This document shows, in pieces, positions 6,938-18,968 of a DNA stretch of 64,000 nt. Positions within the stretch are counted from its first letter, which is position 1, and each line of letters opens with the position of its first letter. Below the pieces are notes generated by a model. That model was not told the origin of the DNA. It saw only the letters and a list, made by a program, of their open reading frames with translations, and made no database searches. The stretch comes from a virus (taxonomy: Duplodnaviria; Caudoviricetes): the IMG/VR virus record IMGVR_UViG_3300032038_000022, positions 32,001 through 96,000 of that record. One strand, written 5' to 3'. Made by a program: the position numbers and the translations under genes.

Positions 6938-8071
6938 ATGGCAAACGATATTGTAAAGAAGAACAAAGATGTAACAGAGGTTAGACCTTTAGAAAGTTAC
7001 AGTCAAGAAGAAATAGAAAAATACGAAAAAATAACTAGATCATTAGATATTACCAAACCTAATTCTGTTTTGATGTATGGTTCAGAGTTAAGTAACGTGG
7101 CTGAACAAGCAGCAGATGAATTACTTAAAGCTACTAGAAGATCAAATGCAGGTGATGTTGGTGAACAACTTGGACAACTTCTTTCTAAGCTTGGAGAAGT
7201 TAAGTTAAATGATCCAGGTCAAGCTCAAGGATGGAAAAGAAAACTAATAAAATATATTCCATTCTTAAAACCGGTTCTAGATGACTACGAAAAATTTACA
7301 AGTCGATATGATACAGTAAAAGATAGTTTTGATAAAATTAAAGAAGAGGTAAACATTATCAAAACTGAAATTCAAGAAGGAACATCTGAAACAGAGCTTT
7401 TATACAAATCAATATCTAAATATAAAGATGATATTGAGGAATTAATAGAGGCTGGTCAATATAAACTGGCAACTATTGATAAACAACTTAATGAAATGGA
7501 TGATAATGATCCTGAAAAGCAAAAGTTAACTATCTTTAGAAATACCTTAAATAATGATATTTTCCAAAAGATTGAACAAAAATATCTCCTTCAGAGTAGT
7601 ATGGCTCAAATTGTAACTATGACCGCTGATGATGCAATGATTTGTCAAAAGGCACAAAGAGTCGTAGGAACAACAATACCTCTGATGAAACAGAAAGCTC
7701 AGGTTGCTATTAAAGCCCTTAAACTGAGATATTATTGTGATGTATTCGATGGGATTGATCAAACAGCTGATGCCTTAATGAAGAGTGCATCTAAAGCCGT
7801 TGAATCTGTTACGGTCGATATTGCTAATCAGGCTGTTCGTGACGATATTAAGTTCGAAACCTTGATTGAAGAAATGAATGCTAATATCAGAACTGTTGAA
7901 CAACTTAATCAAATTCTTAGGGAAACAGGAACTAGGAGATTGGAGCAAGTTAAGGAACTTGAACAGAAATCTACAGAAATGAAGAAAGTCTATGGAAAAA
8001 CTATTCAAACTGCCGACGAACAGAAGAAACTCTTTGGCAATGGGCATGTAGAAGTAAAAGAATTGAAATGA
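6938..8071 (+). CDS. TelA/KlaA-like toxic anion resistance protein
   Basis: LDIT.PNSVLMYGS...A...ADELL...DAGDVGE.L..L...RYDTV...TTIPL.K motifs in a long coiled-coil. Confidence 0.8.
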   Translation: MANDIVKKNKDVTEVRPLESYSQEEIEKYEKITRSLDITKPNSVLMYGSELSNVAEQAADELLKATRRSNAGDVGEQLGQLLSKLGEVKLNDPGQAQGWKRKLIKYIPFLKPVLDDYEKFTSRYDTVKDSFDKIKEEVNIIKTEIQEGTSETELLYKSISKYKDDIEELIEAGQYKLATIDKQLNEMDDNDPEKQKLTIFRNTLNNDIFQKIEQKYLLQSSMAQIVTMTADDAMICQKAQRVVGTTIPLMKQKAQVAIKALKLRYYCDVFDGIDQTADALMKSASKAVESVTVDIANQAVRDDIKFETLIEEMNANIRTVEQLNQILRETGTRRLEQVKELEQKSTEMKKVYGKTIQTADEQKKLFGNGHVEVKELK

Positions 8072-15024: not shown

Positions 15025-15062
15025 TTTCACTATTAAGGATTTAGAAAGAAGGAAAATTAAAG

Positions 15063-15133
15063 TTGGAGTACCAGGATTCGAACCTGGAAGTACAGAACCA
15101 AAATCTGTTGTGTTACCATTACACTATACTCCA
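15063..15133 (-). tRNA. tRNA-Gln(TTG)
   Basis: TGGAGTA acceptor stem, anticodon arm ACAGA-TT-TTG-GT-TCTGT, T-arm CCAGG-TTCGAAT-CCTGG; no encoded CCA. Confidence 0.95.
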
Positions 15134-15153: not shown

Positions 15154-15684
15154 CTAAGGATTTTGATCCTTTTCAATTCCCTTTATTATCAATAGTCTTA
15201 TAAGTTTATTAAAAGAACTTAGATAGTTGTTTTTCTCATTATTCTTTATCCAGTATAATAATATATCTTTTTCTATCCAAATTTTGTTTTTAAAAAGTGA
15301 TTTTTCAGTTAATATTATTGTTCTAAAAGACCCAAAGAATAGAGGAAACTTAAGATATTCATCTCTTATTAATCTTTTCCATTCAGGTAATTTAGTCCCT
15401 TTCCTTCTTCCTCTTCCACTCCACCATATAGAACAAGTACACTCAAATCTATGACATCCGTTTCTATCAAGTTCTATATCATTAGTCAGCCATCTATTTA
15501 GGTATCGATAGGGGTTACCCTTTAATTTCTTTTTAATCCATTCCATGCTAAACTTCTTAGGACAATTAAATTTATTTATTATTTTTAGCAGATCTGAATC
15601 ACTAAGTCTAAGGGTAAAGGGAATTCTTAAAGTAATGTCAGTATAATTTTTAGAATTCTTATTATATTTATAATATATCCACAT
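15154..15684 (-). CDS. basic hypothetical protein
   Basis: 176-aa K/W-rich ORF; no motif recognised. Confidence 0.55.
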   Translation of the reverse strand: MWIYYKYNKNSKNYTDITLRIPFTLRLSDSDLLKIINKFNCPKKFSMEWIKKKLKGNPYRYLNRWLTNDIELDRNGCHRFECTCSIWWSGRGRRKGTKLPEWKRLIRDEYLKFPLFFGSFRTIILTEKSLFKNKIWIEKDILLYWIKNNEKNNYLSSFNKLIRLLIIKGIEKDQNP

Positions 15685-15727: not shown

Positions 15728-15834
15728 TTAAGGAATTAAGGTCCAATATTTATTTTTCCAGTCTTCAAAAGACGTTTCATTCTCCAAGTAAGATTATAGA
15801 GATCTATGTATATGGGAAGGGATTCCGATATCAT
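15728..15834 (-). pseudogene. Avd/four-helix-bundle-like N-terminal stub joined to an orphan C-terminus
   Basis: 32-aa ORF MISESLPIYIDLYNLT-WRMKRLLKTGKINIGP (15834-15736); the first 16 aa resemble the LPIY.D.Y.L start of Avd-like proteins; another frame gives SYLENETSFEDWKNKYWTLIP-stop. Confidence 0.45.
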
Positions 15835-15862
15835 ATTTCCTATATTTTTTTTAAATTAAAAG

Positions 15863-15929
15863 GGTGTGGCTCGGACCTATCTCACTCCGAATAGAGTTCT
15901 CGTTCAATTTGGCCAATCGAGCTCACACC
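15863..15929 (-). promoter_or_regulatory. GC-rich stem-loop downstream of the variable region (DGR target-recognition hairpin and/or terminator)
   Basis: GGTGTGAGCTCG pairs with CGAGCCACACC (11 bp, one bulge), starting 21 nt after the stop at 15951. Confidence 0.6.
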
Positions 15930-15940
15930 AGAAGATAAAT
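15922..15940 (+). repeat. 19-bp direct repeat, copy 1
   Basis: CTCACACCAGAAGATAAAT, identical at 17187 and 18516. Confidence 0.95.
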
Positions 15941-15950
15941 AGCTGAAGGG

Positions 15951-17024
15951 TTAAAGTGCAAAAAACGCCCTAACTCGACAGGTAGCAGTCGTATCAGACT
16001 TAGTGTAGGTGTATAAGTGACCGCTATACGTATGCACGTTCCTAACACTCGTAGAAGAGTTCCCAGTACTGGACCAACACCAGTGGCCATAAGCAGTATC
16101 TCGACCCATTTCAATTGCGATTGAATTACCCCAAACACTCTTAACAGCATTCAGACCAGCATTAATTGCTCCATATCTAGCAGTTATAAATGCTAATTCT
16201 CCGCACGCAGGAAGATACCAATCACCAACATTAGTACCAGTTGTATGGAATCGATAACAAGTCATAGCTGCCGGATAATTTCCAGAAGCTCCTGTATTTT
16301 CTATACTGCTTGCAGTCTTCCAATCAGTACCACTAACTGCAGCTAAGATTTTGTCAGTATTACTTCTTCCGTCAAAATCATTAGTAGCCATATTATCAGC
16401 ATAGTAAATTATATTTTTACTTCCATCTGGTAGGATAGGATTAGGTCCAAATCTTATTTCCCCATCAGAACCAATTGAAGAATCATAGTTACCAAAGTAA
16501 TAATCTCCAGATGGATCTATAGTACCAGTGTCATTAAAGGCAGTGTCACTAGGTATTCTTACCCAATCAGTTGCTCCACCGAGTTCACCAGTTTTTCCAT
16601 TTACATAATTTACTAAGCTATAATTTTTAAGATTTGCAACATCTACATTTGGACCCCATCTAAGATTTAGGTTATCACTTACATTACCATTACTTGTTGA
16701 TGTTGTTCCAACTTCGGGAGTTGTACAGCTCATATTTACAAGAGACATAATACGTGTAGTGTAATCTGGAGAATAGTTATATGGGACTGCAACAACTCCA
16801 ATTGGTGTCAAATGTGCATAATGAAATCCATTATTCTTATAGCTACCTGAACTCATGAATTCTATACTTTGTGTTTTAGAGTTATATAATGCTACGTCAC
16901 CAAAGGATGTTTTTGGGTATGGATTATAGTAGCACTTTCCCTCCACTAAGTCAATACCTGGAGTTGATATTTTATCAGCTTTACTCCAAGCATCTTTTGT
17001 ATCAAAACTTCTTAAATAATTCAT
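15951..17024 (-). CDS. DGR target-like protein (C-type lectin fold), copy A
   Basis: DFDGRSNT...DWYLPACGEL...WSST...RVRAF motifs; start taken at MNYL by alignment with copy B. Confidence 0.85.
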   Translation of the reverse strand: MNYLRSFDTKDAWSKADKISTPGIDLVEGKCYYNPYPKTSFGDVALYNSKTQSIEFMSSGSYKNNGFHYAHLTPIGVVAVPYNYSPDYTTRIMSLVNMSCTTPEVGTTSTSNGNVSDNLNLRWGPNVDVANLKNYSLVNYVNGKTGELGGATDWVRIPSDTAFNDTGTIDPSGDYYFGNYDSSIGSDGEIRFGPNPILPDGSKNIIYYADNMATNDFDGRSNTDKILAAVSGTDWKTASSIENTGASGNYPAAMTCYRFHTTGTNVGDWYLPACGELAFITARYGAINAGLNAVKSVWGNSIAIEMGRDTAYGHWCWSSTGNSSTSVRNVHTYSGHLYTYTKSDTTATCRVRAFFAL

Positions 17025-17186
17025 AATTTTCAATAGAATATTCACCATTCTTTGTAATGATGATCTTATTTCCGTATAGTATATTATATTCCTTGCGTTT
17101 GAAAATCTTATTTTCTTCTGCGAAAAACTTCTTTATGTCCATTACCCTAATAAAAGATTTATATAGAGATTAACAAAGCATATCAT

Positions 17187-17205
17187 CTCACACCAGAAGA
17201 TAAAT
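17187..17205 (+). repeat. 19-bp direct repeat, copy 2
   Basis: CTCACACCAGAAGATAAAT at the junction of the two tandem units. Confidence 0.95.
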
Positions 17206-17215
17206 AGTTGAAGGG

Positions 17216-18283
17216 TTAAAGTGCAAAAAACGCCCTAACTCGATAGTCAGCATCCGTAACGAATTTAGTGTCGGGACACACGTAACCAAGACTCGTATTC
17301 ACTTCCCAAGCAGCCAAACCAGAGAACCCAGAACTAGACCAATAACAGTCGCCATAAGCAGTATCTCGACCCATTTCAATTGCGCTTGAACTACCCCAAA
17401 CACTCTTAACAGCATTCAAACCAGCATTAATCGCTCCATATCTAACAGTTATAAATGCTAATTCTCCGACTGCAGGAAGATACCAATCACCAACATTAGT
17501 ACCAGTTGTATGGAATCGATAACAGGTCATAACTGCCGGATAATTTCCAGGAGTTGCTGTATTTTCTATACTACTTGCTGTCTTCCAATCAGTACCACTA
17601 ACTGCAGTTAAGATTTTGTCAGTATTACCTCTTCCATCAAAATCATTAGTAGCCTTATTATCAGCATAGTAAATTATATTTTTACTTCCATCTGGTAGGA
17701 TAGGATTAGGACCAAAGGGCATATCCTCATCAGTACCAGTTGAAGAATCATAGTTAAGAGAGTAATAATCTCCAGATGGATCTATAGTACCAGTGTCATT
17801 AAAGGCAGTGTCACTAGGAAGTCTTACTGAATCAAACTCTCCCTGTAGTTCACCGGTATTTCCATTGACATAATTATTTACGGTATAATGTTTAAGAATA
17901 TCTACATTTGAACCCCAGCTAAGATTTAGGTTATCACTTACGTCACCATCACTTGTTGCTGTTGTTCCAACCTCAGGAGTTGTACAGCTCATATTTACAA
18001 GAGACATAATACGTGTAGTGTAATCTGGAGAATAGTTATATGGAACTGCAACAACTCCAATTGGTGTCAAATGTGCATAATGAAATCCATTATCCTTATA
18101 GCTATCTGCACTCATGAATTCTATACTTTGTGTTTTAGAGTTATATAATGCTATATCACCAAAAGATGTTTCTGGATATGGATTATAGTAGCACTTTCCC
18201 TCCACTAAGTCAATACCAGGAGTTGATATTTTATCAGCTTTACTCCAAGCATCTTTTGTATCAAAACTTCTTAAATAATTCAT
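17216..18283 (-). CDS. DGR target-like protein (C-type lectin fold), copy B
   Basis: Close paralog of copy A with a strongly divergent C-terminal 36 codons; DWYLPAVGEL...YWSSS...RVRAF. Confidence 0.85.
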   Translation of the reverse strand: MNYLRSFDTKDAWSKADKISTPGIDLVEGKCYYNPYPETSFGDIALYNSKTQSIEFMSADSYKDNGFHYAHLTPIGVVAVPYNYSPDYTTRIMSLVNMSCTTPEVGTTATSDGDVSDNLNLSWGSNVDILKHYTVNNYVNGNTGELQGEFDSVRLPSDTAFNDTGTIDPSGDYYSLNYDSSTGTDEDMPFGPNPILPDGSKNIIYYADNKATNDFDGRGNTDKILTAVSGTDWKTASSIENTATPGNYPAVMTCYRFHTTGTNVGDWYLPAVGELAFITVRYGAINAGLNAVKSVWGSSSAIEMGRDTAYGDCYWSSSGFSGLAAWEVNTSLGYVCPDTKFVTDADYRVRAFFAL

Positions 18284-18297
18284 AATTAGTTTTAATT

Positions 18298-18471
18298 TTA
18301 ATCATTATAAACCTGGCCGAGTTCCCAATCTTTAGGTTTATCAATGATTTCATAATTATCAATAGAGTCTTCACCATTCTTTGTAATGATGATCTCATTT
18401 CCGTATAGTATATTATACTTCTTGCGTTTAAAAATCTTATTTTCTTCTGCGAAAAACTTCTTTATGTCCAT
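18298..18471 (-). CDS. 57-aa protein missing from the ORF track
   Basis: MDIKKFFAEENKIFKRK...KDWELGQVYND, coupled by TAATG to the upstream gene; a truncated duplicate starts near 17142. Confidence 0.65.
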   Translation of the reverse strand: MDIKKFFAEENKIFKRKKYNILYGNEIIITKNGEDSIDNYEIIDKPKDWELGQVYND

Positions 18472-18968
18472 TACCCTAATAAAAGATTTATATAGAGATT
18501 AACAAAGCATATTATCTCACACCAGAAGATAAATTTAACTTTATCTAATTCTATGATTAGGTTTTCTTTATTCACTGTTTTTATAAATATTATTATAAAA
18601 GTTATTATTGGGATTACCCATAACATCATCCACCAAGGGTTTCTATAGAATATCACCCAGAGTTGTGAAAATATTCCTGCTATACTAGCTCCTATTATGT
18701 GAATTGTTTTCTCATAATCCCTTACTCTAGGAGCAGCACCTACTAATATTAATCCAAATATTCCAGCAAATGGTATTATTTGCGTATATGGTGTTATATC
18801 CATACAAGTTGGTAGCACTAAGAGAGCACTGGTCCATAATACTAGAGTGAATATAGGTCCCCATTTTATTTCATAATAGGATTGTGAAAGAGAGCTTGGA
18901 ATTCCATATTTTATACAAACCCAAAGAGTATAGGCACTTAGTATCGCCAGAGATATGATCACGTTCAT
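18471..18968 (-). CDS. multi-pass membrane protein
   Basis: GIPSSLSQSYY, LVGAAP, IH.IGA, FWCE with several hydrophobic helices. Confidence 0.75.
   Translation of the reverse strand: MNVIISLAILSAYTLWVCIKYGIPSSLSQSYYEIKWGPIFTLVLWTSALLVLPTCMDITPYTQIIPFAGIFGLILVGAAPRVRDYEKTIHIIGASIAGIFSQLWVIFYRNPWWMMLWVIPIITFIIIFIKTVNKENLIIELDKVKFIFWCEIICFVNLYINLLLG
18516..18534 (+). repeat. 19-bp direct repeat, copy 3
   Basis: CTCACACCAGAAGATAAAT inside the codons for FIFWCE of the membrane-protein gene. Confidence 0.95.

Follow-up and report, generated by a model that had tools for sequence, protein, structure and literature searches.

The stretch of DNA analyzed here (the window; 64,000 nucleotides, bases 32001-96000 of the 118,859-bp IMG/VR record IMGVR_UViG_3300032038_000022) contains, at the end of a tail-fibre block, what very probably remains of a diversity-generating retroelement (DGR). 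Its cassette of avd, template repeat (TR) and reverse transcriptase (RT) gene was lost by deletion, and the variable regions (VRs) of its two tandem target genes would have been left frozen. The source is a giant (jumbo) phage of gut/rumen type with a genome of roughly 370 kb, of which the record represents about 32% as estimated by CheckV, leaving about two thirds of the genome unseen. The close homologs returned by a protein search are on contigs that reach about 430 kb.

The Missing Cassette

The relatives show an intact cassette at the position where the window has none. In the closely related L004, an 84-kb ENA contig whose flanks are 94-95% identical to the window (blastn), the syntenic site has a single target gene, the same hairpin, bAvd, TR and RT, followed by a homolog of the 176-amino acid (aa) gene that borders the locus in the window (173 aa in L004). 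The bAvd and RT assignments in L004 are based on profile scores of 40.7 bits to PF22296 (cut-off 40) and 71.1 bits to PF00078 (cut-off 29.6), respectively. All 12 mismatches between the L004 VR and its own TR are at TR adenines, with 0/97 at other bases, the hallmark of a working DGR. The L009 VR has 17 mismatches to its own TR at adenines and three at other bases. The target-bAvd-RT arrangement is kept in all eight of the intact relatives inspected (L004-L010 and L013), which extend down to 46% aa identity. Alignment of the window to L004 by blastn has breakpoints at L004 positions 11231 and 13049, and hence about 1.82 kb of cassette, lying between the hairpin and the next gene, is absent from the window. 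A preliminary description, made from the letters of the window alone, had proposed that avd-TR-RT was deleted here and had set an alignment to relatives in advance as the test, with an insert of ~2 kb expected near position 15790; the alignment came out as predicted.

The scar of the deletion is a 32-codon open reading frame (ORF). This ORF is an in-frame avd'-'RT fusion, given that Avd residues 1-15 are retained at 15790-15834 (100% identical to L004) and RT residues 389-408 at 15739-15798 (90% identical, with the stop codon extending to 15736), both as determined by tblastn. The preliminary description of an Avd-like stub was therefore correct for the first 15 residues, but the stub is not Avd alone, being fused to the last 20 residues of the RT. 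In a three-way alignment the junction lies in a TATAA(T) microhomology. Because gene stubs remain on both sides of the junction and the cassette is present in all eight intact relatives, it was lost in the window lineage and not gained by the relatives. The reverse history, in which the cassette-less state is ancestral and the relatives acquired avd-TR-RT by insertion, has only its formal possibility in its favor and is extremely unlikely: it would have to account for the first 15 Avd codons and last 20 RT codons that flank the window junction, for the window's retention of the hairpin and of a VR 3' end homologous to the TR, and for the presence of the cassette in relatives as distant as 46% aa identity.

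Searches of the whole 118.9-kb record are consistent with this loss. Neither a six-frame search for RT (PF00078) nor one for Avd (PF05635, PF22296) found a match in the record, in line with the earlier description of the element as disarmed. Similarly, a blastn search of the record for a third VR- or TR-like copy returned the two VRs only, and in an ungapped TR scan of the record, which scored the positions invariant between the two copies and skipped the variable ones, the best non-self match was at background level (52/116 positions). The absence of an RT and of a third VR copy, first noted for the 64-kb window, thus holds beyond it. Of the components of a functional DGR, none of RT, paired TR and avd was found in the 118.9-kb record, whereas RT is present in L004-L010 and L013.

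The Variable Regions

The two target genes, copies A and B, are duplicated hypervariable genes as originally described, with 92% identity in the gene body (854/925) versus 77/116 in the C-terminal VR block, and their differences are concentrated in the last ~136 nucleotides (nt). With adenine sites defined by the orthologous TR of the relatives, copies A and B differ at 21/39 TR-adenine sites, compared with 18/97 sites elsewhere (odds ratio 5.1, p = 1e-4). Based on this enrichment, both VRs carry the footprint of a DGR.

Each VR additionally carries mismatches of the other kind. Relative to three TR variants (those of L004, L009, and L070), VR-A has 9-11 non-adenine mismatches and VR-B has 13-14, only three of them common to both, whereas live relatives have 0-3. 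In VR-B several of these changes affect scaffold residues that are constant across the family: W to C (WCW to CYW), SST to SGL, and KS to KF. The most economical interpretation is that template overwriting of the VRs has ended and that ordinary substitution, by drift or adaptation, now shapes them. The preliminary description had proposed a search for a TR differing almost only at adenines: the record contains no TR, and against the relatives' TRs the window VRs show the adenine enrichment together with the 9-14 non-adenine mismatches. Private non-adenine changes number 11 in copy B and seven in copy A. This difference is not significant, although an excess in B would be consistent with an earlier cut-off for B, at the loss of its hairpin (see below).

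A second assembly, L003 (an ENA contig of 209,749 bp, compared over 21 kb), has both junctions of the window and identical VRs, with three mismatches in 21 kb, none of them in a VR. These three mismatches cluster at 16409-16419 in copy A, where the window bases agree with copy B, which points to either gene conversion between the paralogs or assembly mixing.

Outside the intact relatives, 12 nt are deleted from within the VR of the L011 target (P0005 lineage), and the ORF after this target, of 108 aa, is non-Avd and takes the place of avd; the target may be a remote one or may have decayed as well.

Fold of the Target Protein

The matches of the two targets to the Pfam family Lcl_C/DUF1566 (PF07603) are sub-threshold (20.4 and 19.7 bits versus a cut-off of 34.9 bits); several homologs of the target carry a precomputed PF07603 match. 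We built an AlphaFold (AF2) model of the target on 26 homologs, with a predicted local distance difference test (pLDDT) value of 85. A Foldseek search of this model against the PDB gave no match at E <= 0.001; a wide search with VIA-align then gave matches to the Bacteroides fimbrial protein 4eps (Z 13.6, 202 residues aligned), the Legionella Lcl C-terminal domain 8q4e (Z 9.7, 127/131 residues aligned), TvpA (Z 6.8), Mtd (Z 6.2), and many C-type lectin-like domains. This search confirmed that the target belongs to the C-type-lectin (CLec) superfamily, as do DGR variable proteins, and supported the lectin identity proposed in the preliminary description. The best structural likeness is to the Lcl C-terminal domain/DUF1566 and to B. 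ovatus BACOVA_04982 (4eps), from which the target differs in that its N-terminal two thirds are specific to this phage clade.

Duplication of the Target and Loss of a Hairpin

The minus-strand order of target B, target A, hairpin, 32-codon ORF and next gene was recovered exactly where it had been placed (Table 1). An exact 19-mer, ATTTATCTTCTGGTGTGAG, occurs in three copies at the locus, compared with zero expected by chance. Beyond GGTGTGAG at 19-mer copy 2 the sequence resembles the 3' end of the upstream membrane-protein gene and not the hairpin, which explains why copy B has no hairpin. Unequal exchange at the 19-mer gave rise to the second target copy. As a conserved, designed recombination site, however, the 19-mer was rejected: it corresponds to only a 9-mer in L004 and L009, and L005, L006, and L008 lack it. 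Since the homology is so limited in these relatives, the duplication looks accidental and not built in.

Table 1. Features of the DGR remnant, listed in minus-strand order.
Feature	Coordinates	Strand	Remarks
165-aa membrane-protein gene	18471-18968	-	Upstream of locus; 3' end holds 19-mer copy 1
19-mer copy 1	18516-18534	-	In 3' end of membrane-protein gene; left boundary of duplicated unit
Small ORF, intact, 57 aa	18298-18471	-	Precedes target B; conserved in relatives
Target copy B, 355 aa	17216-18283	-	Tail-fibre block; C-terminal C-type-lectin/Lcl_C fold (predicted)
VR-B, 136 nt	17221-17356	-	Homologous to relatives' TR; 20 adenine-site and 14 other mismatches to L004 TR
19-mer copy 2	17187-17205	-	After copy B; tandem-duplication junction
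Small ORF, second copy, 46 aa	17002-17142	-	Truncated; overlaps start of copy A
Target copy A, 357 aa	15951-17024	-	Ortholog of relatives' single target
VR-A	15956-16091	-	12 adenine-site and 10 other mismatches to L004 TR
19-mer copy 3	15922-15940	-	After copy A; overlaps/forms 5' arm of hairpin
Extended stem-loop, ~67 nt	15863-15929	-	24 predicted pairs; after copy A
Deletion scar, 32-codon ORF	15736-15834	-	In-frame avd'-'RT fusion
176-aa gene	15154-15684	-	Right-hand synteny anchor; follows RT in L004

The alignments show two further traces of rearrangement besides the cassette deletion, namely the 19-mer junction and the shortening of the second small ORF to 46 aa via a 70-nt deletion between two TAATTATGAA repeats of 10 nt. 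The small ORF of the relatives has 57 aa in L004, L009, and L010 and 67 aa in L005 and L008. Copy A was called as an ORF of 365 aa from an upstream ATG; 357 aa are obtained from the homologous start. Its aa identity to the L004 target is 87%, compared with 79% for copy B, and a mid-gene block is common to copy A and the L004 target. A contig from another sample has an A-like allele in the single first position.

Tandem metagenome-assembled genes raise the question of an assembly artefact, in which two strain variants of one target were stitched together or the deletion is a mis-join. Assemblies are often broken or confused by DGR VR/TR repeats, and the three clustered mismatches at 16409-16419 do make copy A resemble B there. 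We nevertheless consider an artefact very unlikely based on the facts that both junctions are present in two assemblies, that the junction homologies of 19 nt and ~6 nt are far below the assembler k-mer length suggested by the contig names (k141), that a 70-nt deletion and substitutions of its own mark the region upstream of copy A, and that the reading frame is maintained through the fusion ORF.

Together, a VR at the 3' end of the ORF, the 3' block GTTAGGGCGTTTTTTGCAC and a downstream hairpin make up a DGR target site. All three are present in copy A, whereas copy B lacks the hairpin and has the other two; both encode a variable protein of the C-type-lectin fold. The hairpin is retained from the DGR target site. 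Its onset is 27 nt beyond the end of the TR/VR homology, and long hairpins of unrelated-looking sequence are present at the same position in L005, L006, L008, L013, and L024. Its folding z-score is weak (-1.24), and seven of the 24 pairs are compensated in L011 (RNAalifold, four-sequence subset). A search of Rfam at the hairpin gave no match. The hairpin of the clade has a conserved inner GGAGTGA-type motif.

Several genes around the locus were also noted. The neighboring genes have weak tail-fibre PHROG matches, with an amidase upstream; a tRNA-Gln(TTG) gene is located just downstream (15062-15133, minus strand), and a TelA/tellurite-resistance-like gene further along the window (6938-8071, plus strand). 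The RNA-ligase gene (PF09414; 10220-10907, minus strand) consists of two overlapping ORFs of ~116 aa each in this phage and in L003 and of a single 228-aa ORF in the sister genome L004, which suggests a frameshift or a split gene in this phage.

Related Loci and Remote Targets

Related loci were also sought in IMG/VR. A search with a single protein as query found no related locus there, an alignment-based scan returned no relatives above 46% aa identity and only those at or below this value, and scanning IMG/VR for exact occurrences of the 3' homology block gave no match.

Some relatives carry DGR targets away from their cassette. Two JGI metagenome contigs, L069 (3427-3933, a 168-aa protein) and L072 (a protein with an unrelated body), share this VR scaffold, along with the 3' block and the hairpin. 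Inside the VR they have 0-1 non-adenine mismatches to the TR of L070, a different JGI metagenome contig that carries an avd-TR-RT cassette. Judging from these matches, the DGR of this clade apparently serves several remote targets. Three IMG/VR records of 305-412 kb (G001, G009, and G012, the records behind L013, L022, and L026) have two DGR-type RTs each. A second DGR of this kind was considered as a source for the window VRs and rejected, based on the unrelated, GC-rich TR/VR pair of the second DGR in G001 (L066:8814-9272). L014 (G002; 98 kb, 91% complete) has no RT; side by side in this phage genome are genes for a 757-aa fibre, whose lectin-like domain is internal, and a 311-aa protein that also has a lectin-like domain.

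Several considerations weigh against the interpretation of the locus as a DGR remnant with frozen VRs. It presumes expression of both copies, which would then act as alternative receptor-binding tips. Some of the non-adenine mismatches could reflect a divergent, lost TR and not drift, and the L003 and window assemblies may come from one sample. Finally, a cassette could exist elsewhere in the genome, based on the incompleteness of the record, the related jumbo phages with two RTs each and the trans-served targets of the clade. In that case the DGR would be active in trans, with a second avd-TR-RT in the unseen ~55-68% of the genome diversifying VR-A, and the locus would be a remote target, an explanation with which the retention of the 3' homology and hairpin by VR-A is also compatible. 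We regard it as quite unlikely, however. The cognate cassette adjoins the target in every close relative and has visibly been deleted in the window, in G001 the TR of the second DGR is unrelated, the window VRs have 9-14 non-adenine mismatches to known TRs versus 0-3 in active systems, and the VRs are identical between the two assemblies. We infer that no cassette in the unseen part of the genome still serves these VRs.

Proposed History and Comparison With Known Systems

The interpretation of the locus as a remnant leads to the following proposed history. The ancestral order was that of the intact relatives: membrane-protein gene, 57-aa ORF, lectin-fold target with VR, long hairpin, bAvd, TR, and RT. 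Three microhomology-mediated rearrangements then altered this layout. Unequal exchange at the 19-nt repeat, which lies both in the end of the upstream gene and in the 5' arm of the hairpin, doubled the unit of small ORF and target and left copy B without a hairpin; the 70-nt deletion between the 10-nt repeats shortened the second small ORF; and the ~1.82-kb deletion at TATAA(T) took avd from codon 16, the whole TR, and the RT except for its last 20 codons. Mutagenic retrohoming into both VRs should have ceased without a nearby template and RT, and the two VRs would be frozen snapshots that now change by ordinary substitution only.

The preliminary description went further in viewing the duplication as a switch from retro-mutagenesis to keeping diversity by duplication. 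Such a switch is conjectural; what we observe is the co-occurrence of the two events in one lineage, with the duplication at a microhomology specific to that lineage. A related possibility is that the duplication came first. Since the point of exchange is in the 5' arm of the hairpin, copy B would have been deprived of the cis element that retrohoming needs and locked as a saved receptor-binding variant while copy A kept diversifying; the cassette would have been lost later, with two fixed tips left on display. We think this order of events unlikely. If it were both true and general, tandem hairpin-less copies would let DGR phages bank successful variants.

The gene order of the intact relatives is the same as that of the DGR of Bordetella phage BPP-1 (mtd/VR, hairpin, avd, TR, brt). 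Further likenesses to BPP-1 are the adenine-only VR/TR mismatches of intact relatives, the CLec-fold tail-fibre target (similar to Mtd, as noted above) and the stem-loop just downstream of the VR. In phage DGRs, hairpins are situated 4-34 bp from the VR and have a stem of 7-10 bp capped by a GRNA tetraloop (Guo et al. 2011, PMC3240598). The 27-nt spacing in our clade falls within this range, whereas its ~67-nt, 24-pair stem-loop is unlike the hairpin of BPP-1. Also unlike BPP-1, avd, TR, and RT are deleted in the window, the target is duplicated, and the host phage is a jumbo phage.

The loss of a DGR that leaves orphaned targets has already been published, and the locus shows no new mechanism. 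In some Treponema denticola strains the DGR core has been lost and the target genes left, and in the leftover VRs most differences from other strains' TR are at adenines (Nimkulrat et al. 2016, PMC4891356). The window targets likewise persist without an RT or TR. The T. denticola cases are bacterial and were inferred from the presence and absence of genes, whereas the window is from a phage, with both deletion junctions readable and with a visible in-frame avd'-'RT scar and tandem duplicate. What the locus adds is a tandem pair of target copies, each frozen in a different state, one of which has lost its hairpin.

The locus is therefore of interest as a natural DGR knock-out in which both deletion junctions are legible and for which an intact sister genome is available for comparison. 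It provides a direct view of the fate of VRs without template overwriting, in the form of non-adenine changes that include scaffold residues. In addition, the hairpin-bearing and hairpin-less copies of one target could serve to test what retrohoming requires in cis in this clade.

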